Below, piece by piece: positions 1 through 34,955 of a stretch of DNA of 37,461 bases (position 1 is its first letter; each line of letters begins with the position of its first letter). The position numbers were made by a program, and so were the translations under genes. The DNA is from a virus (lineage: Duplodnaviria; Heunggongvirae; Uroviricota; Caudoviricetes). The notes under the pieces are model-generated. The model was not told the origin of the DNA and did not search any database. It saw only the letters and a program-made list of their open reading frames with translations. The stretch lies in IMG/VR virus record IMGVR_UViG_2875703104_000006; one strand, 5' to 3'.

Positions 1-12
1 TATTTCCTCCTT

Positions 13-291
13 TCAGCTCCATTCCCGAAGCGGTGTTTCCAGCTCCACGACATAATCAGAGAATACAGAAACATCAAACAAGTCATCAAGAATGCGAATG
101 TTGACAAAATAACCNTCATTCCGGANACAGACAGGTTCTCCCTCTTCTGTTACCCCTGTTTCTGTGTAGGTGAAACCAATTTCATCNACTAACAGTTTAT
201 TCTGGAGGTCTTCATCNTCCNCCCAGNCAAGAGATGACAGGAAGGCCTTAAACTGCAGTTTGTCATGAAACTTCAAAGTTAAATCTTTCAT
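13..291 (-). CDS. Small protein translationally coupled to stf (ATGA overlap); possible tail fiber assembly/chaperone protein
   Basis: 92-aa ORF whose ATG (289-291) overlaps the stf stop (288-290); position matches tfa downstream of stf. No recognisable similarity to lambda Tfa; several N-derived X residues. Confidence 0.35.
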   Translation of the reverse strand: MKDLTLKFHDKLQFKAFLSSLXWXXDEDLQNKLLXDEIGFTYTETGVTEEGEPVCXRNXGYFVNIRILDDLFDVSVFSDYVVELETPLREWS

Positions 292-2498
292 ACGACCTCT
301 TTTAATTGCCTGTCATTTAATTCTTTATGCCATATGCGGAAATTGCGAATATGGCCAAACAGATGTCGTTCTCCAGTATTCGTCTGCCCTCCAAATCGGA
401 TATTTTTATCAGCGGTCACNCCATTATATTCACAATAAACTTCATTAACCGCTTTACCATTTGTCACCACATGAAAGTGACCATCAGCTTTTGCAATACA
501 TCCAAATGTGGTTTTCTCTGCAAATACATCTGTCGCTGCGCTATTAACATACNAGCCTGAAGGGTTTGACAGACTCATATATAACTTACCACTACCTCTG
601 TTGATTGCTGCAATTGCTGATTGCCCGGTATTGGCTGCTGCTATATCCCACACGCGGGGTGCGGCGTTTGGTGCAATATCCCAGTTTTTATGAATCTCAA
701 GTAAAAAAGTAAATGGTAACTTATAAAGATTATTTCTGGTGGGGATACTAACCAAATCACTGGCTCTTGTCGTTGCGCTGCCTCCTGAAATAATAAATGA
801 TGATACACACGGCCCATTCTCTACTTGTGGGGTGGCAAGATAAATATAGTCACCAGATACTGTTGCCCCACCCNGCTCAGGAGAATACTGTATCTGAGAG
901 CCTATTTTTAACTCACCATCAATTGCCTGAATCGTTGCCTCTGCAAAAATCCAGCCNGTGGTCTTATCCTTCCTGACTCGTGCCGTAATTCTGCCGGCAG
1001 CNCCACCTGTCATATTAATTTCAAGCGTTTGCGTATCAATGTACGCATCGCCAAGAAAAGTTGTTGCACTACCATCATACTTATCAAACCGTATACGTAA
1101 CCTTACCTGTCGTTCTGTTTTAAAACGGCATGAGGTTGTCACGTACTTGTTATCGCCTGAGACATCAACTGACTTTGTTGCAGCAATTGATGCCATATTA
1201 ATAGCCGAAGTTTGCCCAACCAGAGAATCGTTGCAGACAAACTTTCCATAAGTAAAACCAAAACTATCNGTCCCGGTTTCGGGCACATCCATGTTTGATG
1301 ACTTCCCCCAGCTGGCTGGACTTTCCGAATTGAGCATGTAGTTCGTTCTTTGTCCCTCAATAAGCAGGCCATCACACTCAAATCGCGGCTCATTAATTTC
1401 CGCCGTTTTCAGTTCGCCAGATTTGTTGATATATGTTGCCGTTGATGCGCGACTGAAATTAACCTGTTTATCACTGGCGACCTGAACCACATCGTCACCA
1501 ATAGCTATTTTTTTATAGCCCGGAGAAAAACCCGCAATCATATCCAGTGAATCGTTAAACGGTATCCACACATCAGGCAGCGGCGGCACTATATTCGCAT
1601 AGGGCTCTGCAGTCACTTCCGCTGCGNCTTCTGCGCGGTCTGCCGCCTTTTCAGCNCGTGTCGCTGCCGACAGAGCCTCATCCTTTTTCTGCCCGGCCTT
1701 TGTTGCGTCTGCTGCNGCCTCCCGCGCTTTTGTGGTGGCGACTCCGGCATTTTCAGCGGCTGACTCTGCATTACGGCGGGAAGCCTCTTCACTGTCTGCG
1801 GAGGCTTCTTCTGACGCACGGGCATTTGTCTCTGAACGTTCTGCCGCTGTTGCTGCGTTTTGTGCGGCTGTTTTTGAAGAAGCTGCCGCTTTCGCGCTGT
1901 TACCTGCATTCGTCTCTGATGNNNNNNNNNNNNNNNNNNNNNTGTCTGCGGAGGCTTCTTCTGACGCACGGGCATTTGTCTCTGAACGTTCTGCCGCTGT
2001 TGCTGCGTTTTGTGCGGCTGTTTTTGAAGAAGCTGCCGCTTTCGCGCTGTTACCTGCATTCGTCTCTGATGTTTTCGCCGCGTTCCTGGACGATGCCGCT
2101 GCTGTTTCTGATTTCTTTGCTGCCGCTGCGCTCTGAGAGGCGGCTTCAGCGTTGCGTGCCACATCCTCCACCATTACCTCAAAACGACGCAATGCCTCCG
2201 GCATGACATCATCTTCCGTCATGGCACCGAGAAAATCATTCAGCGTACCTGGTCTGGAACCTTCATAGACGGTAATGGTCCCGGCATGTGAAGGCGGAAA
2301 ACCTTCAACCAGCAGGGTGACGCTGTACTGGCCATACTCAACATCCATGCTGTAACGCCCGGCTTCATCCGGATTTTCAGAGGCCACCGTGTTCACCAGT
2401 ACCGTGGTGCTGTTACGCTTTGCTTTGAGCTGAATAGTACAGTTCTGTATTGGTTTTCCTGCACCGTCTTTCAGCACGCCTGAAATCTGTACTGCCAT
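288..2498 (-). CDS. stf: Side tail fiber protein (Stf-like); contains a duplication/gap artifact
   Basis: N-terminus MAVQISGVLKDGAGKPIQNCTIQLKA... matches the lambda Stf N-terminus; long Ala/Ser/Thr-rich repeat region; ATG at 2496-2498 preferred over the track's GTG at 2504. Internal 129-bp exact duplicate flanking N-run 1922-1942. Confidence 0.85.
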   Translation of the reverse strand: MAVQISGVLKDGAGKPIQNCTIQLKAKRNSTTVLVNTVASENPDEAGRYSMDVEYGQYSVTLLVEGFPPSHAGTITVYEGSRPGTLNDFLGAMTEDDVMPEALRRFEVMVEDVARNAEAASQSAAAAKKSETAAASSRNAAKTSETNAGNSAKAAASSKTAAQNAATAAERSETNARASEEASADXXXXXXXXSETNAGNSAKAAASSKTAAQNAATAAERSETNARASEEASADSEEASRRNAESAAENAGVATTKAREXAADATKAGQKKDEALSAATXAEKAADRAEXAAEVTAEPYANIVPPLPDVWIPFNDSLDMIAGFSPGYKKIAIGDDVVQVASDKQVNFSRASTATYINKSGELKTAEINEPRFECDGLLIEGQRTNYMLNSESPASWGKSSNMDVPETGXDSFGFTYGKFVCNDSLVGQTSAINMASIAATKSVDVSGDNKYVTTSCRFKTERQVRLRIRFDKYDGSATTFLGDAYIDTQTLEINMTGXAAGRITARVRKDKTXGWIFAEATIQAIDGELKIGSQIQYSPEXGGATVSGDYIYLATPQVENGPCVSSFIISGGSATTRASDLVSIPTRNNLYKLPFTFLLEIHKNWDIAPNAAPRVWDIAAANTGQSAIAAINRGSGKLYMSLSNPSGXYVNSAATDVFAEKTTFGCIAKADGHFHVVTNGKAVNEVYCEYNXVTADKNIRFGGQTNTGERHLFGHIRNFRIWHKELNDRQLKEVV

Positions 2499-2519
2499 AT
2501 TCACTCCACAAATAAAAAA

Positions 2520-2537
2520 GGCGCCATTTCTGGCGCC
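2520..2537 (-). terminator. Hairpin GGCGCCA-tttc-TGGCGCC followed by a T-run on the minus strand, just downstream of J
   Basis: 7-bp perfect stem, 4-nt loop, A-run on plus strand (T-run on minus). Confidence 0.5.
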
Positions 2538-2556
2538 CGTATTTGGGTTATAAAAT

Positions 2557-5500
2557 TCAACTGATACTGATACCGGCTGTTGATTTCTTCATCACGACAA
2601 CAAGAAGGTCGCTGATACTGGTCGTTGGCGTCCAGTTATTTGCACCATATGAAGAAACATTGAAAGTCAGGGTGACATGGCCGTGTCCCGCTGGCATATC
2701 AATGACGGATGAAAATACCCTGCTGACATCCGTCGCGGGTTGCTGAAAGATTTCCTGTCCGTTCTTCAGTACCTGCAGCTTACAGGTTGAATACCAGTAT
2801 GACTGTTGGTTGTTGCTGTTGAAGTTTTCATGCTTACCACCGCGAAACAGAACGGGTGGGATTACTATCTGACGGTCAAAAGCCTGGTCATCGTACACAG
2901 TGACCGTTATTGTACCGCTGGCATAACTGCCATTTCTCGGAAAGGCTTTTCCCACCGTTTTGACAATATCACCTTCAATCTGGTTGGCAGACAGTTTTCC
3001 CAGAATCCGACAGTTCTGGTTAATCGTGACATTATTGAGCGTCCCTGAGTTCGCATTCACGTTACCGCTGATATCGGCATTTTTCGCCGTCAACCGCCCG
3101 TCCGGTGTCAGGGAAAATACCGGCGGATTGCCGCCGCTGGTAATGGTGGGAGCCGTCAGATACTTCAGGAACACTTCGTTCATGAATATCTGGTTGCCCT
3201 GCGCCACAAACATCGGCGTTTCATTCCCGTTTGCCGGGTCAATAAACGCGATACGGTTAGCGGCAACCAGGAACTGGCTCAGTTTGCCTTCCTCCGTATC
3301 CTCCATGCTGAGGCCAATACCCGCGACATAATGCCTGCCGTCTTCGGTCTGCTCAATTTTGACGCCCCACATGGCATTCCATTTATCGTTGGCGTCTTTC
3401 CACTCTTTCGAAAACTCCTCCAGTTTGCTGGCGTTATCCTCCGTCAGCTCGACTTTTTCCAGCAGCTCCTTGCCGAGATGGGATTCAGTTATCTGGCCTT
3501 TGAAAAAATCCAGATAGCCGGAAGCATCATCGCTCGCCTGACCGACAGCCTCCACGAATGCCGATTTGCCAACAGTATTCACACTGCGGATATAAAAATA
3601 ATAATCATGGCCCGGCTTAATATTGATACTGGCAGCTATCCAGTACAGCGCCGTGCCAAGATAGCGGGCTGTGGTTTCAACCTGCCTGATATCGGTAATC
3701 CGCTTTTCCGAGAACCAGAATTCAAACTGTACCGTCGGGTCATAAACGGCAAGATGCGGCGTGGCGGTTATCTGAAAATAGCCCGGCGTCAGATCAATCC
3801 TCGACGGTGCTGCCGGTGCGGCAATCCGGAACGATACCGACGCCGGATCGCCCTGCTGCCCCCACGCATTTACCGCCCGGACTGTCAGCGTGTACCGCCC
3901 CAGCGCCAGTTGCGTGAAGCGGTATGTGGTTTCCGTCGTCCGGGCCGTGCTGACCAGCCGCTCACTGCCGTCATCCGCTGCCACGGTCAGGCGAAGCATA
4001 AAGCTCACCCCCTTCACCACCTTCGGCGTGTCCCAGCGCGCCAGCACCTGATANNNNNNNNNNNNNNNNNNNNNTGTGGTTTCCGTCGTCCGGGCCGTGC
4101 TGACCAGCCGCTCACTGCCGTCATCCGCTGCCACGGTCAGGCGAAGCATAAAGCTCACCCCCTTCACCACCTTCGGCGTGTCCCAGCGCGCCAGCACCTG
4201 ATATTCCCCGCTGTCTGCGGTGACTTCGGCAGTCAGGTGCTGCACCGCTGGCGGCGTGACACCATTCACCGTGCCGCTCTGGTCGCCGTCAAAGTGCGCC
4301 CCGTTATCCACGATGGCCTCTTTTTCCGGTACATGCTGCACGGCAGTGATGGCATACGTGCCGTCATCGTTCTCACNNNNNNNNNNNNNNNNNNNNNCTG
4401 GCGGCGTGACACCATTCACCGTGCCGCTCTGGTCGCCGTCAAAGTGCGCCCCGTTATCCACGATGGCCTCTTTTTCCGGTACATGCTGCACGGCAGTGAT
4501 GGCATACGTGCCGTCATCGTTCTCACGGATACTCACGCAGCGGAACAGGCGCTGGCGCAACGTCGGCAACTTCAGCCCCCACACGCTGTATCCGGCAACG
4601 CCGTCAGGAACCCGGCTCACTTTTACCTTCACGCCGTCGGTGACGGACTGGACCTCCACGCTGACCGGATTGCCGCTTCCGTCAACCAGGCTTATCAGCG
4701 TGGTACCGGAGGATGGCAGAGTGATTTCACGGTCGAGCGTCAGCGTCCGGGTCTGGCTGTTCACCGCCAGCACGCGCCCGCCGATGCTGATACCCGCATA
4801 GTCATCATCGCAGATTTCAATAACATCGCCCGGCACATGGCGAAGCCCTTCTGCGCCCACGCTGAAATCCACGGTCTGCGTTTCCAGCAGTTCCGTTTTA
4901 ATCAGCCACAGCCCGGCTCGGTGTGCCTGCCCCCGACTGGTACAGCCAAAGGCATCCATCTTCGTGACGTTACGACCGTAACGGGCAATGGCCTGCGTGT
5001 CCTCCACAAGCTCTGTCGCCGTCTCCCAGCCGTTATCCGGGTCAATCCAGTTCACCTCAACGGCATTATGGCGGTCCTTCAGGGCGCTGAAACTGTAGCG
5101 GAACGGCGCGCCATCATCCGGCATCACCACATTACTGCGGTTATAGGTCCACACCTTATCCGACGGCCGGTCCTGCACGAACGTCAGCGTCTGCCCGTTC
5201 CATACCGGCATACAGCGCATCGCCGAGCAGAAATCACTGAGAACATCCCACGCCTTACGCTGTGTGGTCAGCCAGGCATTACAGGTGATGCGCGGCTCCG
5301 TGCCACCAAAACCATCCGGCACCGACTGGTCGCAATTCTGGCCGATGACATACAGCGCCCATTTGTCCACATCCGCCGCACCAAGACGTTTCCCCATGCC
5401 GTAGCGCGGATGGGTCAGCATATCCCACAGACACCAGGCCATGTTGTTGCTGTATGCCGGTTTTAACGTTCCGTCCCAGATACCGCTGTATTGTCGCGTC

Positions 5501-6245
5501 TGCGGGTTATAGTTCGACGGCACCTGCAGAATGCGCCCGCGCAGATGATAATTACGACTCACCTGCTGACTGCCGAACTGCTCCGAGTCCACCTGCACAC
5601 CGACCAGTGCCGTGTTCGGGTAGCACTGTTTCATATCGATGATTTCGGTGTATGACGACCAGAGCGTTTTGTTCTGCAGCTGGTCTGTGGTGCTGTCCGG
5701 TGTCATCCTGCGCATCCGGATATTGAACGGGCGCGGAGGCAGGTTATCCACCACCACCGAGGCCAGATACTGCGAGGTGGTTTTGCCCTTAATGGTGATG
5801 TCTTTTTCCGTCACCCAGCCACCGTTACGCTGTATCTGAACCAGCAGGCGAACTTCCGACGGATTCCGGTCACCCTTTGAAGTGGTTTCCACCAGTGCCT
5901 GCACACCGAAGGTAAAACGCAGACGGTCGATGTTTGCCGACGTGATGGTGCGGGTGATCGGCGTGTCGTATTTCACTTCCGTACCCAGCACCGTCTCGGA
6001 GCCGGAGGATTCAAACCCCTCCGGCGGAGTCTGCTCCTGCTCACCTGCCCGGAACACCACCGTGACACCGGAGATATTGGTATTCCCCTCAGTGTCCAGC
6101 ACCGGCGTACTGTTCAGTAGCACGCTTTTTAACCCATCCACCGGACCTTCAATCGGCCCTTCGCTGATGGCATCGATCACACTCAGTAACTGCGTGGATT
6201 TCAGGTTGTCCTTCGCTTCGCGCGGGGTATGCCCCTTACTGCTGC
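2557..6245 (-). CDS. J: Host specificity / central tail fiber protein J (lambda gpJ-like), lacking its own start codon and read in frame from the upstream fragment
   Basis: Translation [42 protein letters not shown]... matches lambda J from about residue 4 through a long stretch; the reading frame carries two internal duplication artifacts around N-runs 4054-4074 and 4377-4397. Confidence 0.9.
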
Positions 6246-6447
6246 CTTTATACGTTTTACCGAGCATGATGTCTTTTCCTGTATGCCCGTGACATACAGT
6301 CCATACACCAACAATATCTTTGTATGGTATGTAGCTGACACCTTCCAGGCCATCGTCACCACTCGGACCAGTGATGAGCACAGACGCTATGGCAACAGCC
6401 CCACCACCAATAGCAGCAGCAATAGCCTTGCGTAATGATGGCGACAT
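6246..6447 (-). pseudogene. N-terminal 67 codons of a phage-21-type SAR endolysin (signal-anchor-release domain) fused in frame to J
   Basis: [67 protein letters not shown] resembles the R21 SAR endolysin N-terminus as recalled; frame continues directly into J at about 6245; start overlaps the pinholin stop (ATGA at 6447). Confidence 0.7.
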
Positions 6448-6662
6448 TATTCACCTCTCGCAGCCTTACGCTTATCTTCTTTAATCTTGAAATAAAGGTT
6501 TGTCAGATACGTCAGCAAGCCAAATACCAGACTACCCAGCACACCTATTGCCGCCCACTGTGAGGGCGTGACTTTATCGAGCAACTGTAAAAACCAGTAC
6601 CCGGCACTACCTGCTGAGGTGCCATAGGCGACACCCGTTGTTAACTTATCCATGGATTTCAT
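6447..6662 (-). CDS. S: Class II holin (phage 21 S-type pinholin) with dual-start motif MKSM
   Basis: 71-aa product [71 protein letters not shown]; two TM segments; Met1/Met4 dual start typical of the S21 holin/antiholin pair. Confidence 0.85.
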
Positions 6663-7401
6663 AACCCCACCCCGCAGACAAAGCGGGTGTAAATTAAGGG
6701 GATACTACGTATCGCAATAAAGGCAGAAACGTAACAGATTCGGAGTCAGTGAATAACTCAGGTATTGGGTTATCAGCTAATATCGAGACTCAAAAAATGG
6801 AAAAACCCGCTCGACGGCGGGTTTAAGCTGTGTGACGAAGTAACCACTCTTAACAGCATAACCAATTTTTTACGTACGTAAACTACTAAATGATATTTGT
6901 GAGAATGCCACCGAGTGTTCAAAACACNNNNNNNNNNNNNNNNNNNNNGGAAAAACCCGCTCGACGGCGGGTTTAAGCTGTGTGACGAAGTAACCACTCT
7001 TAACAGCATAACCAATTTTTTACGTACGTAAACTACTAAATGATATTTGTGAGAATGCCACCGAGTGTTCAAAACACCACCACAAATACATAAGAAAACT
7101 TCAACAAATAACCAATGAATAATTTCCGATGTTATTTTTAGTTTGTTTAAATTAAGTTAAAGAATTATAGGGCGCTTATAAATAAGTGCCATTAATATAA
7201 ATTAGCTAATAGATTTATTTTCGTTCAAACAAGAGCCATGAATAGGATTAGATAGAAAAGGTTCAGATAAAAATAGAGATCTACTTCACAAATTAAATGA
7301 GAAACTAAAACTTACATCTTGAAATAATCGCATTGATTAGATGAATATTTATCGCGCAGTGACATCATTTTTTAATAATAGTTCAAAAAAAAGGGCGTAC
7401 A

Positions 7402-7690
7402 ATGAAAAAATTAACAGTGGCAATTTCTGCTGTAGCTGCATCAGTACTGATGGCGATGTCTGCTCAGGCAGCTGAAATTTATAATAAAGACAGTAACAAG
7501 CTGGATCTATACGGGAAAGTTAATGCCAAGCACTACTTCTCCTCTAATGATGCAGATGATGGTGATACTACTTATGCCCGTCTTGGCTTCAAAGGTGAAA
7601 CCCAAATCAACGATCAACTGACTGGTTTCGGTCAGTGGGAATATGAATTCAAAGGCAACCGTGCTGAATCTCAAGGTTCTTCCAAAGANA
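7402..7690 (+). pseudogene. nmpC: 5' fragment (about 96 codons) of an NmpC/OmpC-family porin gene; truncated
   Basis: [95 protein letters not shown] matches the NmpC signal peptide and first beta strands; similarity ends near 7690 (N at 7688) and a stop follows at 7716. AT-rich promoter region upstream (7080-7400). Confidence 0.8.
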
Positions 7691-7997
7691 AGATAAATTG
7701 TCTCTTCACTCCCTGACAGGGGCGATTCTTTTCAAATCGCCATTTCGCCATGGCCTTCACCACTTCATCACGAAACAAATTATGAGGCTCTGAGCGGAGA
7801 AAAACGATCCGTGTCACAGTCCCATCAGCACCAATATCGAACTTAACCTCAACCAGCCCCTTGATATAATTTGCTGCAGCATATTCCGGATATCGTGGAT
7901 ACACCGTCACTAATTGCCGGGGCTCATCAGCTTTTTGCTGCGAGCATCCCACTGCCAGGACAGATAACAGAAAAAGTAGTAAAAGGCGTCTTTTCAT
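7671..7997 (-). CDS. Lipoprotein with TonB C-terminal-like domain
   Basis: Start [21 protein letters not shown] (lipobox LAVGC) with SD AGGA; body [56 protein letters not shown] resembles the TonB_C fold motif. 3' end overlaps the nmpC remnant antisense, so the C-terminus may be non-native. Confidence 0.5.
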
Positions 7998-8307
7998 TTT
8001 TATTCCTACGGGTCTTATTCTGACAATATATCCTGTGTTCCAGACTGCCACATCACCACATCCTGTGCCATTATCTGACTCACATTACATACATCGCATC
8101 GGGATACAGTAGTAGCACTTTCTGTAATACAGCTTCCTGTTTCTTCCACCATCGCACCGGGATAAACCCGCGAATCATTAACGCGGTAAAAACCCGGTGT
8201 GCATCGTTTTTAATTATCCCCGCACACTCGCGCAGAGGAGTCTCCCTGTCGGGCTGCGGTCTCTGTTAATGAGGGAATATAGCGACGATACGGCGCATCA
8301 ACAAAAC

Positions 8308-8781
8308 TTATTTCAGGCACTGAGTGCGGATATAGTCCTGTGCCCCTTCCAGTTGCTTGTGCATCGTCATCAGCCGCTCTCTGAGGGTGAAATAATCCCG
8401 TGTAACGGTGTCTGCCAGTTGGGGGCCGGTTGCATTATCCACGCCGGAGGTGGTGGGGGCTTCACGCACGGAGCCTGGACAGGTGGCGTTGATCCGCAGG
8501 CGCTTACGACCAGCGGCAACGTCAGCGCGAAGAGTTTCATTTTCAGCTCTCGCATCGGCTAATTCCCTCGAGTATTTTGCATCGAGCGCAGCAACATCGC
8601 GCTGGCGCACCTGCATATCAGTAATGGTTGCGTTCGCCAGCTTCAGTTCACTGGCTTTGTTATCGCGCTGCGCTTTGTAGGTAATCGCGTTATCACGGTA
8701 ATGGTCTGTTGCCATCCACAGCGCACCACAGGCCACCAGCAGAATAACGATAAACGCGGAAAGCATTCGGTTTATGTTCAC
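8308..8781 (-). CDS. Rz: Spanin inner-membrane subunit Rz (i-spanin)
   Basis: N-terminal TM segment then [15 protein letters not shown]...[15 protein letters not shown]...[25 protein letters not shown], closely resembling lambda Rz. Confidence 0.85.
8370..8555 (-). CDS. Rz1: Spanin outer-membrane lipoprotein Rz1 (o-spanin), embedded in the +1 frame of Rz
   Basis: [56 protein letters not shown]: lipobox, proline-rich, close to lambda Rz1; start within the listed ORF is uncertain. Confidence 0.8.
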
Positions 8782-8909
8782 CCCAGCAACCCCGACGAAG
8801 ACAACATCATCCAGGCCATGGAAAGAAAAAGAGCAACCAGCATTAGTGAAAATGAAATGCCGACAATTACACAGAGGATCTTCGCCAGCGTTATGAGTTT
8901 GTCTGACAT
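8778..8909 (-). CDS. Small hydrophobic ORF between endolysin and Rz (43 aa)
   Basis: [43 protein letters not shown]; one TM segment; stop overlaps the Rz start (ATGA). Could be noncoding. Confidence 0.3.
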
Positions 8910-9262
8910 GCTTAATCCTCCCTTCACGATTTCAACGCAATGACCAGTTTTGCCAGCCCATACAGCATCGGGGACACAGCAACACCGACCGCCACCCACT
9001 TAATGGCAAAAGCCAGTGCTCTGCTGATGTCATCAGTTACAGGCGCTTTCAGTTCAAGGCCATTTTTCATAGTCAACCTCAACAGAATTCGTTTACACTT
9101 CGCCATGTTCTCCCTTGCCTTACTCAAGGTCAGAAACACAAAACCTCGCTTGGTGCCAACAAACGGGGTTTTTACTTTTATTCACTTACGTTTCGCCAGT
9201 TCGCAGGATTTCGTGTTATCCGCCCGCGTGGCCATTCCTCATTTTTCAGCAAAATATTCTGC

Positions 9263-9796
9263 TTATCTGTCGATACCCCAGCACGCCAGCGCGCTCTCCT
9301 GGTCACGACGGGATACCTGACCGTAACAGTTGTTTGAACGAATACGGCAGTCTCTGCCACCGTCCTTAATCCACCAGCGAATCGCTTCGCAGGCACCTTT
9401 TCGATCACCAGCATTAATTCGTCTGTAAAACGTCGACGGGAAACACTTACCGGGACCAATGTTGTACGGACAGAATGACGCGATCCCCGCTTTCTGGGGT
9501 TCGGTCAGCGGCACTCTGATGTTTTTCTCCACCCACGCCAGCGCTTTATCACGCTCAATGGCGTTAACCTGGTCGCATTTTTCCTTCGACAACTTCATGC
9601 CCGGAACGACAGGTTTGCCATCCACCATGATGGCACCACGGCAGATGGTCCAGATACCTGCACCATCACGGTATGCCGTGGTGTGGTTGCCTTCCTTTTC
9701 ATCCAGAAACTGGTCGAGAATGTCAGGCGCAGGCGCACCAGCGGCAATCAGCGCCAGAACGGCAGCCGACAGGCCGTATTTGATTTTGGTGTTCAT
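9263..9796 (-). CDS. R: Phage lysozyme (GH24-like endolysin) with Gly/Ala-rich N-terminal signal-anchor (SAR-type)
   Basis: 177 aa; N-terminus KYGLSAAVLALIAAGAPAP is a weakly hydrophobic SAR-like segment; body resembles lambdoid prophage lysozymes. Confidence 0.85.
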   Translation of the reverse strand: MNTKIKYGLSAAVLALIAAGAPAPDILDQFLDEKEGNHTTAYRDGAGIWTICRGAIMVDGKPVVPGMKLSKEKCDQVNAIERDKALAWVEKNIRVPLTEPQKAGIASFCPYNIGPGKCFPSTFYRRINAGDRKGACEAIRWWIKDGGRDCRIRSNNCYGQVSRRDQESALACWGIDR

Positions 9797-9832
9797 GGAT
9801 ATATTAAATATTCAGCCGCTGTCCCTGGCCCA

Positions 9833-10726
9833 CTAAATACGCACTTTAAGATAAGTCAGCCCCGGATGAAGCCAGTAAGCCGGCACTTTTTTAAAGGGTG
9901 GAGTATTAAAATCACGAAGAAGAGCCTCCCGCACAATTGCATCCTTATCAGCACCACTGGCCAGCGCTTCAATCTCAGCGGCTACCTGAAGATATCCCAT
10001 GCAACGGCCAACGCGCTTCATCAGCCCCTGCTTTTTATTGTTCTTCAGGTAATCAATGGCAAATTCAATGAGCTCCTCACTGTGCTGGTGCGATGGAGGT
10101 GTTACTTTCCCATTTTCTGAGATGGTTATTTTCCCAGCATCACCGGATACAACAAAGGATGGCCGGTTACACTCCCATTCCGGGTCACTGAAATTATCAT
10201 TATGAATACTGAAACACTCTGCGAGATTTCTGCTCATCACTTTCCGACAATAATCGTCAAACGCAGCAAACTGCTTTTCATCGCCAGAAGGCACCAATAT
10301 CGACCATTTCTTATTCAGCTCAACGACGTAGCTCTCCAGTTTTTCAATACGTGATTCAACATCATCTTTTTCTGACCGCAGTGTTGACGGCGGCATCTTC
10401 AGAGAACAAGTAATTCTTCCCGGTAGCTTTCCTTTGTAGGTTATCAACACATCCTGCGCCTCTAAAATTACGGGGCGCTTTTCCGGCAACGGTTCGTTCC
10501 ATTCACATAACCCGGCAGCAACATCCATGAAAAACTGCTTCGCCTGCTTTTTCGCCTCAGCTTCGTAAAACTCCAGCGTGGCACCTTCAGTACGGTCAAG
10601 ACTAATCGCCACATCTGGCAACAACAGCGACGCTTGCCCGTCACCTTCCGACTTCACAGTAACAGTAACCTTATCCCCGTAATTATTTATCCCCTTAACA
10701 ACCAGTTCATATTTTTTATTCATCAC
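9833..10726 (-). CDS. Hypothetical 297-aa protein inserted between holin and endolysin
   Basis: Clean ORF, start 2 nt after the holin stop, ends 37 nt before the endolysin start; no recognisable motif. Confidence 0.6.
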   Translation of the reverse strand: MMNKKYELVVKGINNYGDKVTVTVKSEGDGQASLLLPDVAISLDRTEGATLEFYEAEAKKQAKQFFMDVAAGLCEWNEPLPEKRPVILEAQDVLITYKGKLPGRITCSLKMPPSTLRSEKDDVESRIEKLESYVVELNKKWSILVPSGDEKQFAAFDDYCRKVMSRNLAECFSIHNDNFSDPEWECNRPSFVVSGDAGKITISENGKVTPPSHQHSEELIEFAIDYLKNNKKQGLMKRVGRCMGYLQVAAEIEALASGADKDAIVREALLRDFNTPPFKKVPAYWLHPGLTYLKVRI

Positions 10727-10727
10727 T

Positions 10728-10934
10728 TTACTCTCCCCGCGCCGCCTTACGCCGGTCCTCTTTGATTTTGAAATACAGGTTAGTCAGGTACGTCAGCAGC
10801 CCAAACAGCAGACTCCCCAGCACGCCTATTGCCGCCCACTGAGACGGGGAAACCCTGTCCAGCAACTGCAGGAACCAGTAGCCCGTTCCCACCGCTGACG
10901 TGGTGTATGACACACCTGTTGTGATTTTTTCCAT
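10728..10934 (-). CDS. S: Class II holin (S21-type pinholin), single start
   Basis: 68 aa [68 protein letters not shown]; paralog of the 6447-6662 holin. Confidence 0.85.
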
Positions 10935-10945
10935 CTGGTACGTGA

Positions 10946-11264: not shown

Positions 11265-11532
11265 TCATGCCGCGATGTCCGCGTTGTTCACTTCCACCTT
11301 CACACTGTCAATCAGCAGCGTATATGTCGCCGCCTTTGATATGCCTGTCAGTTGCAGTTTGTCCGCCGCCCCTGATGCCGGAGACCGCCGCAATGGCCTG
11401 CATCAGGGTATAAGGCGTGATGGCCACCGGACTGCCAAATGGCTGCCACCCCTCCTTCAGTTTTTGTGTCAGTCGTTTCGCAAGGTCTGACGGCGATGCC
11501 GCCCTGACAACATCATAGTGTTTAAATGCCAT
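11265..11532 (-). pseudogene. Internally deleted remnant of the NanS-p-like esterase gene (first about 45 codons joined out of frame to the last about 40 codons)
   Basis: 11410-11532 matches the 5' end of the intact gene at about 16250-16375; 11265-11390 matches its 3' end at 14264-14390. Confidence 0.7.
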
Positions 11533-13435: not shown

Positions 13436-14267
13436 TTACCTAGTTACCTTTTTTAACTGCCGCTCAGCCCATGCTTCTTCAATATCAAACCGGGTCACCA
13501 GCGCATCATAGAATTTCTTAACTGTTTTTTCCCATGACGCGCGTGTTATCTGGTTTGTCACCTCGCATATAGCATTAAATGCCTCCGTTGATGGTAGTCT
13601 TTCATAGCCACGACCACCACAACGCTGGCAGTCTCTGATAACAGGCATACCACGTTTTACCGACTCTTCACGATGAATGGCGACACCACGCCCACGGCAA
13701 TCCTTACAGGCGGTGGAAACCTCACCCTTTCCGCCACACTCCGGACAGGCAACTTTTACCACCTCCCTGACTTTTTTCCATACCACGTTTTACCGACTCT
13801 TCACGATGAATGGCGACACCACGCCCACGGCAATCCTTACAGGCGGTGGAAACCTCACCCTTTCCGCCACACTCCGGACAGGCAACTTTTACCACCTCCC
13901 TGACTTTTTTCCATTCTTCCCAGTAAGACGAATACACACCTTTCGTACACTTTGCCCATACCGGCGGCTTACCATCCGGATACTGGACCTTGTTTGTAAA
14001 AACTACGCTTTCAATAAATTTTTCCCCATAGCAACAAGGGCACTGCTTTTTACTCGCTGCGCTGCGGGCATAATCCTCAAAAGCGTACGAAGCCATAATG
14101 CGCATCACTACCGGTTTTATTTCTGCCGGAAGTTTTCTCAACGCCGCCACACGATCGCACCGACTGAGTGCATAATCTGCCAGTAATTCTGTTGCCCGCG
14201 CCCTGTCATTCATACTGATGCCCATTTTCCCCAGTCCATTCCTGCCGCTGGCGGCTTTTTTTATCAT
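13436..14267 (-). pseudogene. Q: Antiterminator Q, copy A: native N-terminus replaced and frame broken by a 133-bp exact tandem duplication
   Basis: Q-like sequence with zinc-binding CPECGGKG...CKDCRGRG; duplicated 133-bp units at about 13648-13780 and 13781-13913; 5' end abuts the nanS-p 3' end. Confidence 0.75.
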
Positions 14268-16375
14268 GCCGCGATGTCCGCGTTGTTCACTTCCACCTTC
14301 ACACTGTCAATCAGCAGCGTATATGTCGCCGCCTTTGATATGCCTGTCAGTTGCAGTTTGTCCGCCGCCCCTGATGCCGGAGATTTCACCAGTGTGAACG
14401 GCGTCCCCCGTTTCTCATCCAGTACCGGCGTCACCTGAATGCTGTTGTTTCCGGCAAACTCAAAAGCCAGTGTGTGCCATCCGTTATCAAAGACCCCGAA
14501 CGTNTCCAGCTTCGCATTCGGCTTCTTGTGGTGCATCGCGTTCAGGTTCGTCGCATCCGTCTGCAGNAAGAAGGACATCAGCATGTCGTTGCCTTCCTCT
14601 GCCAGCGTCACTCCCTCCGGCAGGGACGACAACTGCCAGTAAATGCCCAGGGCAAACTGATTCGGCACCAGTGAACCCGGCAACTTAAACCGTACGCTCA
14701 CACGTCCCCCCTTCTTCAGTAACTCCACTCCCTGTCCGGCTGCATCATGCTCCAGAAACCAGATGTGGTTTTCCGGTTTATTCAGTTGCAGGGCCTTACC
14801 TCCCGTAGCCCCCGCATCACTGACCACCGCTTCAGCAATGTTTTTGTTAACATTGTCTCCGCTCGCCGGTTTGTGATAATAGCGCCAGCCCTGTGATGCC
14901 AGGTCTTCGCCGGACGCCAGCAGACTCATCAGGGTTCGGTTACTGACCGGGGCTTCCGGCTCTCTCTCCGTACCTTCACCGGAAGGTCCGGTGGGCTTCA
15001 CCGTATCAGGCTGTTTTCCGGTAATGAATTCAGCGTTTCTCCCGGCATGCACAAGAATCGCCGTTGCCAGACGGTCGGAAATAATCCCACGACGTGCCCA
15101 TGATCCAAAATGCGTTTTACGGTCNGCCGTCGTCCAGGTTTTGGCGTCCGTTCGACCACCGGCTCCGTAATACCCAATATCCGCAACATCCGGATCTTCT
15201 GACGGCTCGTTGGTACCCACATTTCGCCCGTTTTCATCCGTCATAAACGGCACAAAGAAGATTTTTTTTGCGGATTTCGTCTTGTATGCACCATACACCG
15301 CATCGTATTGCGAAGAATAAGTCTGCTTCCAGTAGTAGGTCGTGTCGCCACAAATCCAGGGAACCGATGACGGAGAGCCCCCGAGACACTGACCTCCGAA
15401 TTCCGACAGGTCAGAACGATATTTTTCCACCATGGAATCAAACAGCCCCGGCTGNGTGGCGTATGCACCCTGTTTCAAATCAAACTCGCCCTGCATCCAG
15501 ACCACTGCAAGCAGAATATTTTTAGGGTTGGCCTTCAGTGCGGCCTGAGTACGGGTAAGCAGGTCCTTGTACAGTGGCTTATCTACACCCCAGCGTGCCG
15601 AGGTCTCGCTTGCGCCGGTGGATTCGCTGAAGGTACCTTCATCGCCCGCCAAAAATGCAGAACCACCACGGCAGCACGGAACCAGAAGAATACCGGCATT
15701 CGCCGGAATAAACGGCAACAATTTCTTCGCGATATGTAATCCCTGCCCCACGCATCCATACTGAGCTGCNCTGGCTTTCGGGTGTGAAAACTTACTCAAA
15801 TCCTGAACATCATGCAGGCAGTGGTCCGCAGGAATAATGTCATTGTAGTTACAGNACGCACCACCCGGCGTGACAGTGCTGCGACGCGCCAGCTGTTTAA
15901 TACGCGGGTCCGGACGGTCATATGTCTCCGGCAGCGGAAGCCCTTCACCATACGCCATACCGTTTGACTGCCCGGCCAGGGCAACAACAAAGTAATACTC
16001 CGGGTTGCTGGTGGTGCTGATAACTGCGCCTTCTCCATCCGACGGCTTCACCACCACAGGTGTGGTGACATCACCTTCCGCCGCAATGGCCTGCATCAGG
16101 GTATAAGGCGTGATGGCCACCGGACTGCCAAATGGCTGCCACCCCTCCTTCAGTTTTTGTGTCAGTCGTTTCGCAAGGTCTGACGGCGATGCCGCCCTGA
16201 CAACATCATAGTGTTTNNNNNNNNNNNNNNNNNNNNNGGCCTGCATCAGGGTATAAGGCGTGATGGCCACCGGACTGCCAAATGGCTGCCACCCCTCCTT
16301 CAGTTTTTGTGTCAGTCGTTTCGCAAGGTCTGACGGCGATGCCGCCCTGACAACATCATAGTGTTTAAATGCCAT
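14264..16375 (-). CDS. nanS: NanS-p-like sialate O-acetylesterase (DUF1737 N-terminal domain plus SASA-type esterase domain); contains a duplication/gap artifact
   Basis: N-terminus MAFKHYDVVRAASPSDLAKRLTQKLKEGWQPFGSPVAITPY and GQSNGMAYGEG motif; 129-bp duplicate around N-run 16217-16237 plus single Ns. Confidence 0.75.
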   Translation of the reverse strand: MAFKHYDVVRAASPSDLAKRLTQKLKEGWQPFGSPVAITPYTLMQAXXXXXXXKHYDVVRAASPSDLAKRLTQKLKEGWQPFGSPVAITPYTLMQAIAAEGDVTTPVVVKPSDGEGAVISTTSNPEYYFVVALAGQSNGMAYGEGLPLPETYDRPDPRIKQLARRSTVTPGGAXCNYNDIIPADHCLHDVQDLSKFSHPKAXAAQYGCVGQGLHIAKKLLPFIPANAGILLVPCCRGGSAFLAGDEGTFSESTGASETSARWGVDKPLYKDLLTRTQAALKANPKNILLAVVWMQGEFDLKQGAYAXQPGLFDSMVEKYRSDLSEFGGQCLGGSPSSVPWICGDTTYYWKQTYSSQYDAVYGAYKTKSAKKIFFVPFMTDENGRNVGTNEPSEDPDVADIGYYGAGGRTDAKTWTTXDRKTHFGSWARRGIISDRLATAILVHAGRNAEFITGKQPDTVKPTGPSGEGTEREPEAPVSNRTLMSLLASGEDLASQGWRYYHKPASGDNVNKNIAEAVVSDAGATGGKALQLNKPENHIWFLEHDAAGQGVELLKKGGRVSVRFKLPGSLVPNQFALGIYWQLSSLPEGVTLAEEGNDMLMSFXLQTDATNLNAMHHKKPNAKLXTFGVFDNGWHTLAFEFAGNNSIQVTPVLDEKRGTPFTLVKSPASGAADKLQLTGISKAATYTLLIDSVKVEVNNADIAA

Positions 16376-20029: not shown

Positions 20030-20984
20030 CTATCGCGTTACCCTCTTTAACTGCCGCTCCGCCCATGCCTCTTCAATGTCAAACCGAACCACCAACGTAT
20101 CGTAAAAGCGTTTCACTGATTTTTTCCACGTATCAAGCGTGATAGCACTCGTCACTTTGCATATGGCATTAAATGCCTCCGTTGATGGCAGCCTTTCACA
20201 GCCACGACCACCACAACGCTGGCAATCTCTGATAACAGGCATACCACGTTTTACCGACTCTTCACGATGAATGGCGACACCACGCCCACGGCAATCCTTA
20301 CAGGCGGTGGAAACCTCACCCTTTCCGCCACACTCCGGACAGGCAACTTTTACCACCTCCCTGACTTTTTTCCATACCACGTTTTACCGACTCTTCACGA
20401 TGAATGGCGACACCACGCCCACGGCAATCCTTACAGGCGGTGGAAACCTCACCCTTTCCGCCACACTCCGGACAGGCAACTTTTACCACCTCCCTGACTT
20501 TTTTCCATTCTTCCCAGTAAGACGGATACACGCCTTTTGTGCACTTTGCCCACACTGGTGGCTTACCATCCGGATACTGGATCTTGTTTGTAAAAACCTC
20601 GCTTTCAATAAATTTTTTTCCGTGACAGCAGGGGCACTGTTTTTTGCTCGCCGCGCTACGGGCATAATCTTCAAACGCATACGAAGCCATAATGCGCATC
20701 ACTACCGGTTTTATTTCTGCCGGAAGTTTTCTCAACGCCGCCACACGATCGCACCGACTGAGTGCATAATCTGCCAGTAATTCTGTTGCCCGCGCCCTGT
20801 CATTCATACTGATGCCCATTTTCCCCAGGAACGCAGAAAACCCCATCTCAGCCCGATTCTGTGTCATGCCCTGCGCGGCCATCACATCAGTGATACTCAG
20901 CGCATCTTTTGACGTTGAGGCCGATGCATCGGTCAGGCCAGGGGATTTTGGGGAGTAGTATTTCGGTAAATCTTCCAGTTTCAT
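20030..20984 (-). CDS. Q: Antitermination protein Q (lambda Q family), copy B; frame interrupted by a 133-bp exact tandem duplication
   Basis: N-terminus MKLEDLPKYYSPKSPGLTDASA...DVMAAQGM resembles the lambda Q N-terminus; zinc-binding Cys cluster; duplication splits the gene into ORFs 20316-20984 and 20030-20380. Confidence 0.8.
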
Positions 20985-27797: not shown

Positions 27798-27939
27798 GCT
27801 CCTCTCCTNCGGCCTCCTGATGTTCTGAGGGTGCAGAAATCCCTCCGGTTAAGGATTAAATTTTTAACAGAGCTAAATTTAATTATTCAGTTCTGGATTT
27901 TGTCGCCCTGCATATCCGCGCTTTCGCGTTACGCTCAAT

Positions 27940-31674: not shown

Positions 31675-31898
31675 ACTCACCTCTTCTGATACCGAATCTT
31701 TTTACTCACAANGGTGGATATACACTGCCATCACTGTTGCAATTGGCTGCCCTGACACCCTGGCAATTGTTCGCCACTTAGGGTCATTTGGCATGTCATG
31801 CCATAATCTGAGCCAGGCGTTAGCCATACTCACCTCTTCTGATACCGAATCTTTTTACTCACAAATTGCCGGAAGTGATCCGGTATGAATATTGCGAG

Positions 31899-34695: not shown

Positions 34696-34955
34696 CATAG
34701 ATAGCCTGTCGTTAAATTTTCGTCGACCGTGCGCTTCCGGTTGTGGCAATCCGCGAAATGGCGCGGCGGTAAGTATGGCGGGGTTATTCCTTCCCCCGTT
34801 GAGGACACCGGGTTGTCAGGTTGACCATAGATAGCCTGTCGTTAAATTTTCGTCGACCGTGCGCTTCCGGTTGTGGCAATCCGCGAAATGGCGCGGCGGT
34901 AAGTATGGCGGGGTTATTCCTTCCCCCGTTGAGGACACCGGGTTGTCAGGTTGAC
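34696..34955. repeat. Exact tandem duplication of a 130-bp GC-rich noncoding unit (probably artifact)
   Basis: Units 34696-34825 and 34826-34955 identical. Confidence 0.6.

Follow-up and report, generated by a model that had tools for sequence, protein, structure and literature searches.

An apparent nmpC truncation beside a TonB_C lipoprotein gene probably marks a contig join in a prophage scaffold

Genes and features around position 7689

The window, meaning the whole stretch of 37,461 nt analysed here, contains at position 7689 the meeting point of a 5' fragment of the porin gene nmpC and a convergent gene encoding a TonB_C-domain lipoprotein, with a holin gene to the left and the spanin genes of a lambdoid prophage to the right. 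The features of this locus, with reference to the ST1193-type complete genome MCJCHV-1 (NZ_CP030111.1), are as follows.

6447-6662, minus strand: ORF for an essD-type class II holin of a DLP12-like prophage remnant, annotated as essD at the colinear position of MCJCHV-1 and colinear with K-12 essD.
6799-7077: essD-nmpC intergenic region with a 21-N gap (N at 6928-6948), in which 6799-6927 is the same as 6949-7077.
7402-7688, plus strand: 5' fragment of nmpC with the signal peptide and the first beta-strands, comprising codons 1-95 and two bases of codon 96.
7689: a single N exactly on the breakpoint, in place of C (nmpC parent) or A (TonB_C parent).
7690-7997, minus strand: gene for a TonB_C-domain lipoprotein (phage 21 CPT_21_73 type; WP_000830178.1), without its last 6 codons and stop.
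7721-7741: palindrome GGCGATT-N7-AATCGCC with 7-bp arms and a 7-nt loop, inside the TonB_C coding sequence.
8308-8781, minus strand: ORF for Rz (i-spanin) of the right-hand prophage (prophage A), annotated as 'lysis protein' in MCJCHV-1.
8370-8555: Rz1 lipoprotein ORF embedded in Rz, taken from the ORF list.

Regarding the porin, the first-pass annotation, made from the letters of the window, had recognized nmpC over about 96 codons, which is borne out: the first 95 codons of the ORF at 7402-7716 (plus strand) encode a sequence identical to K-12 NmpC (fragment 1) at 95/95 amino acids, and a profile search matched residues 29-93 to the Pfam family Porin_1 (E=1.5e-27), covering only positions 1-65 of the 337 of that profile. 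Similarity to nmpC stops at 7688-7691, past the N the porin frame reads KINCLFTP, and an out-of-frame stop follows at 7714-7716, in agreement with the earlier description of an end near 7690 and a subsequent stop; the single N that had been reported is present as well, at 7689 and not at 7688. With only 95 native codons, the nmpC of the window does not encode the complete 16-strand barrel of about 360 aa.

The convergent ORF at 7671-8051 (minus strand) had been described as a TonB_C-like lipoprotein gene, and the profile search agrees (PF03544, E=7.3e-13, residues 33-99), with a match to profile positions 2-67 of 79, which is all that even the intact protein spans. The ORF holds a 108-codon gene whose native start is the ATG at 7997, and the N-terminus, read directly from the sequence, fits a lipobox pattern by eye (...LAVGC). 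This gene is also cut, its frame running into antisense nmpC as far as a stop at 7671-7673, so that in the compared translations the native end FTPSRP plus stop is replaced by XSLEEP plus stop. It lies downstream of Rz/Rz1 on the late-gene strand, an arrangement that matches phage 21 and MCJCHV-1, and its cos side is missing owing to the join. A palindrome had been placed at about 7730-7751 and associated with the junction; it is found at 7721-7741, within codons WRFEKNRP of the TonB_C gene and 32 nt into its coding sequence, and the intact copies of the gene in phage 21 and in complete genomes have it unchanged. In a shuffle test 23% of the shuffled regions held at least one such repeat, and a role of the palindrome as a junction or terminator signal was rejected, as it is not above chance and is native coding sequence.

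Regarding gene order, essD, which had been overlooked, lies directly to the left of nmpC and divergent from it, as in K-12 and MCJCHV-1. Judging from this neighbour, nmpC appears to be in its canonical position, beside essD as in K-12 DLP12 (quuD-nmpC-essD), and the Rz at 8308-8781 and essD are parts of separate lysis cassettes from different prophages. The earlier statement that nmpC lies downstream of Rz and not between Q and the holin is thus not upheld, since nmpC adjoins essD, Rz comes from a different prophage and the Q side of nmpC is cut off by the join at 7689.

On the other side of essD, the ORF at 2557-6447 (minus strand) encodes an RrrD-type phage lysozyme portion of about 65 residues (Pfam Phage_lysozyme, residues 34-83) followed in frame by the tail-tip protein J. 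The lysozyme::J fusion beside essD is also present in complete genomes (gpJ abuts essD in MCJCHV-1, and more than 200 genomes cover the block), and this presence, in contrast to the nmpC junction, marks it as a genuine old deletion in the DLP12-like remnant.

Parental loci in complete genomes

The alignment with intact nmpC and with prophage flanks of related strains, which had been proposed with the first-pass annotation, identified the parents of both sides. Positions 7080-7691 of the window are 99.8% identical to a locus of ST1193-type complete genomes such as MCJCHV-1, in which the counterpart gene (WP_000737271.1; nucleotide identity 99.8%) is intact at 1,083 nt and labelled 'porin OmpC'. 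The gene order in MCJCHV-1 is gpJ - essD - porin - quuD - ylcG - rusA - ybcO - ninE - ybcN, an arrangement that marks the locus as a DLP12-like remnant in which Q and the holin flank the porin. The chromosomal ompC, suggested by the PGAP label, was ruled out by the context gpJ-essD-porin-quuD and by the identity to K-12 NmpC.

On the right, 7690-10941 (3,252 nt) is 100% identical to and colinear with another lambdoid prophage of MCJCHV-1, from 2860890 onward. This parent, prophage A, sits at potC in the reference and carries WP_000830178.1, Rz, lysozyme and holin. In the window, the ORF at 9833-10726 (minus strand, 297 aa), which separates holin and lysozyme, matches DUF1327/YdfR over its first approximately 100 residues (E=1e-40), while the remaining approximately 195 residues have no Pfam match; MCJCHV-1 has identical DNA at this place, for which the sole PGAP annotation is a truncated YdfR pseudogene. 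At 10941|10942, 357 nt common to both reference prophages, which cover the DUF826 gene directly upstream of the holin, are absent with neither an N nor an overlap, a loss that may reflect either a true deletion of small size or one more contig that was dropped.

A three-way alignment at the breakpoint reads ...CCAAAGA-C-AAAACC in the nmpC parent, ...GGCGT-A-AAGATAAATT in the prophage parent and ...CCAAAGA-N-AAGATAAATT in the window. Beyond the breakpoint, native nmpC would continue from the left with '...AAAGACAAAACCCG', and native prophage A would continue from the right with '...GGCGTAAAGATAAATT'. The nmpC-side flank is 99.9% identical to its parent up to the N, which is itself the sole mismatch, and the TonB_C-side flank is 100% identical right up to the N; bases 7690-7691 (AA) are common to both parents, which diverge at 7688/7692. 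In this alignment, position 7689 is the breakpoint between two unrelated sequences. The short stretch 'TGTCTCTT' at 7701-7708 was considered as a Nextera adapter and rejected, the stretch being 100% native prophage sequence.

Prophages recombine with each other frequently in E. coli. Two lambdoid late regions meet at the junction, and homologous recombination or an inversion between the two prophages could in principle have produced a hybrid prophage with its junction at 7689; this origin is extremely improbable, as the alignment shows unrelated sequence on each side and the only parental homology within 400 nt either side of the breakpoints consists of chance 8-9-mers (E of at least 1.9). For the same lack of homology around the breakpoints, both homologous recombination and a repeat-induced collapse of the assembly graph at 7689 were rejected.

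In the ST1193-type complete genomes the left block (1-7688, 99.8% identical and colinear) and the right block (7690-10941, 100%) are parted by prophage and core-chromosomal DNA totalling 56,037 bp, which in MCJCHV-1 corresponds to 2804853-2860889, whereas the two blocks adjoin in the window. The nearest complete genomes, which are 99.8-100% identical on both sides, have a full-length nmpC and a full-length TonB_C gene 56 kb apart. The interval contains the core genes icd, rluE, nudJ, mnmA, hflD, purB, phoP, phoQ, roxA, pepT, potA and potB, together with the rest of the remnant (quuD through intE) and the tail, head and terminase genes of the potC prophage.

As arranged and oriented in MCJCHV-1, the two halves are compatible with a simple deletion, and the truncation had been taken in the first-pass annotation for a recombination or deletion junction. 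A real non-homologous deletion of these 56 kb (MCJCHV-1 2804853-2860889), joining codon 96 of nmpC to the 3' end of the TonB_C gene, would have linked the DLP12-like remnant directly to the half of the potC prophage that carries its lysis and early genes, with loss of quuD through intE, icd, mnmA, purB, phoPQ, potAB and the prophage-A head and tail genes, the N being a consensus hiccup. Such a deletion is unlikely, although the fit of order and orientation, the position of both breakpoints in sequence that is unique in the reference and the 2-nt microhomology (AA) at the join are in its favour. It would cost icd, purB, mnmA and phoPQ, and the joint loss of icd, purB, phoPQ, mnmA and further such genes in a natural isolate is unlikely given E. 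coli physiology. The junction was also not found elsewhere: among 5,426 complete E. coli genomes the nmpC/TonB_C junction did not occur (no place covering 80% or more of 7080-8300), no record in the phage collection spans it, and the junction pattern, with the N as a wildcard, had no match in three collections of genomes, metagenomes and viral contigs. A second junction specific to this assembly, 11384|11385, likewise had no match in the collections searched with it.

Joins and gaps in the scaffold

The window has 30 N sites in its 37,461 nt. The nearest other N site to 7689 is the 21-N run ending at 6948, which makes 7689 the sole N within about 700 nt, and the chance of an N falling in the 3-nt ambiguous breakpoint zone is approximately 0.2%. 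Besides 7689, at least 13 other stitching events are visible in the scaffold, among which are the following.

1922-1942, 4054-4074, 4377-4397, 6928-6948 and 16217-16237: five runs of 21 N, each lying between exact 129-nt copies (129 + 21 = 150).
13646-13914, 20240-20508 and 34696-34955: exact tandem duplications without N, with periods of 133, 133 and 130 nt.

By comparison with the reference, the 21-N runs are overlapping contig ends that were concatenated without being merged. Through their duplications, gpJ and the essD-nmpC intergenic region have gained spurious repeats; in the latter, the reference holds one copy of the 129 nt duplicated at 6799-7077. Similarly, a single N at 31712 parts exact 152-nt copies and a single N at 27809 parts copies of approximately 441 nt. 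Five out of seven other N-marked joins link contigs that truly lie side by side in the reference.

At 11384|11385 the scaffold skips the SASA/DUF6645 esterase gene, which is placed instead at 14235-16216, after the Q region, and the ends of the esterase contig overlap 11236-11384 (149 nt) and 11385-11523 (139 nt). This is a demonstrable false adjacency, in which the contig of a collapsed two-copy repeat was placed once. After 11384|11385 the scaffold goes on in a prophage 'B', located at a different chromosomal site in complete genomes, and the scaffold is accordingly, at 10.9-36 kb, a chimera of prophages A (at potC) and B (elsewhere). Single Ns occur inside the esterase contig at 14504, 14567, 15125, 15455, 15770 and 15855, of which 15125, 15770 and 15855 coincide with all three A-vs-B esterase substitutions in complete genomes, indicating that they mark mixed-read positions of a collapsed repeat and that Ns in this assembly flag conflict or joining. 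For the Ns at 115-1716, in the tail fibre, the prophage-A tail fibre is too divergent a paralogue for comparison.

Regarding the cause of the contig ends, neither breakpoint coincides with a repeat border in the reference genome; the 890 nt to the left of the TonB_C breakpoint occur there once, and the remainder of nmpC is matched by just one further sequence, presumably a more divergent one. Repeat borders, the usual cause of a contig break, thus do not account for the contig ends at 7689. Contigs that break in unique sequence do so most often at IS elements. An IS-mediated event of the K-12 nmpC::IS5 type, in which a multicopy IS lay between the contig ends (through insertion or through a deletion by IS-IS recombination) and the repeat contig was dropped with one N written in its place, would account for ends in such sequence, and nmpC is interrupted by IS5B in K-12. 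This explanation deserves little credence: contig ends in this scaffold keep 129-152 nt of overlap, yet the flanks are purely parental up to the N, with neither IS terminal repeats nor a target-site duplication at the break, and the ORF list holds no transposase ORF nearby. In this respect the earlier observation that no IS element or transposase is visible was correct.

Origin of the junction and comparison with known systems

Position 7689 is probably a scaffold join or an unresolved gap, an assembly artefact rather than a biological event. Two contig ends would have been set side by side, or a gap written as one N, in a fragmented short-read draft of an ST1193-like E. coli, and presumably no reads span the junction. 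The first contig would be the icd-side DLP12-like remnant, with the tail fibre, the rrrD'::J fusion, essD and nmpC, stopping 288 nt into nmpC; the second would start inside the TonB_C gene, 19-21 nt from its 3' end, in a separate phage-21/lambda-like prophage, and run on through Rz, lysozyme and holin. No change to nmpC in the cell would be involved, and the remainder of nmpC, quuD, the 56-kb chromosomal stretch and the second prophage's head and tail genes would be expected on other contigs of the assembly. The 'truncated' ORFs (104 aa and 126 aa) would be reading-frame by-products of the concatenation.

A contig join is favoured because the N falls exactly on the breakpoint, which by chance has the low probability given above; because the same scaffold has many unresolved joins, including the false adjacency at 11384|11385, and switches from prophage A to prophage B, which occupy different chromosomal sites in complete genomes; and because Ns in this assembly flag conflict or joining. 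It is favoured further because the nearest complete genomes hold both genes at full length and far apart, because the junction was in none of the other genomes or contig collections searched, and because a real deletion would jointly remove the core genes named above. The position of the N, the false adjacency and the chimeric A/B paths also stand against the 56-kb deletion.

Several observations speak against an artefact. The order and orientation of the halves fit a deletion, a configuration that a random misjoin would give about 1 time in 4. Neither breakpoint is at a repeat border, leaving the contig ends without an obvious cause, and the N at 7689 has no overlapping contig ends around it, unlike the other N-joins. 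An N-join can, moreover, reflect true proximity, as in the five of seven others joining reference neighbours, which is a point in favour of the deletion. If the junction were real, it would represent a large illegitimate deletion between two prophages, with loss of core genes for metabolism and regulation, in a pandemic ExPEC lineage, and its interest would be modest. Such an isolate would be auxotrophic for purines and glutamate, lack PhoPQ and carry a composite defective prophage and two chimeric short ORFs. Even then it would not be a new kind of system.

Thus, the sequence features that the first-pass annotation described for a truncated gene largely stand, and it was right to caution that both the N and the junction had to be resolved, while its reading of the junction as biological is not supported, given the N on the breakpoint, the other stitching events, the absence of the junction elsewhere and the extent of the chromosome that would be lost. 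With a contig join as the preferred explanation, gene truncations and odd gene orders in scaffolded short-read prophage regions call for caution and should be checked for gap characters and duplicated contig ends; within the window, further ORFs are lengthened or fused through the Ns and the 129-152-nt duplications, e.g. the J ORF of 1,296 aa.

Both genes are already known, one as a prophage porin of the NmpC/Lc type and the other as the phage-21 TonB_C protein, and their combination is most likely not a feature of any genome. K-12 nmpC (b0553), in the cryptic prophage DLP12, belongs with the Lc/NmpC phage-encoded general porins and to the same Porin_1 family as the nmpC of the window, with which it shares all 95 N-terminal residues; the essD neighbour and the region upstream of nmpC are also shared with DLP12, colinear at 92-93% nucleotide identity. 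The K-12 gene is, however, a pseudogene with IS5B near its 3' end, whereas that of the window ends at codon 96 on an N, without an IS, and that of the nearest complete genomes is intact.

Phage 21 CPT_21_73 (UMO75484.1; record OL657228.1) has 100% nucleotide identity over 411 nt to the modern ExPEC-type prophage of the window (7690-8100 against 783-1193 of the phage 21 sequence compared), although the record of phage 21 names Paris sewer in the late 1950s as its source. Its protein of 108 aa has the TonB_C domain and is encoded in the late region between the spanins and cos, matching the window up to the join; the phage copy keeps the native last 6 residues, which are replaced in the window. 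In phage 21, bor lies between the spanins and the TonB_C gene, whereas the ST1193 prophage and the window are without bor there. Other labels for the protein are 'TonB family protein' (WP_000830178.1) and 'partial tonB-like protein of prophage CP-933N'.

Regarding assemblies, the join at 7689 differs from typical unmerged overlaps in having no duplicated ends and in breakpoints that are not repeat borders in the reference. With scaffolded short-read drafts that contain misjoins, the window shares an N on the breakpoint, duplicated ends at neighbouring joins, Ns at the variant sites of collapsed repeats and one displaced repeat contig.
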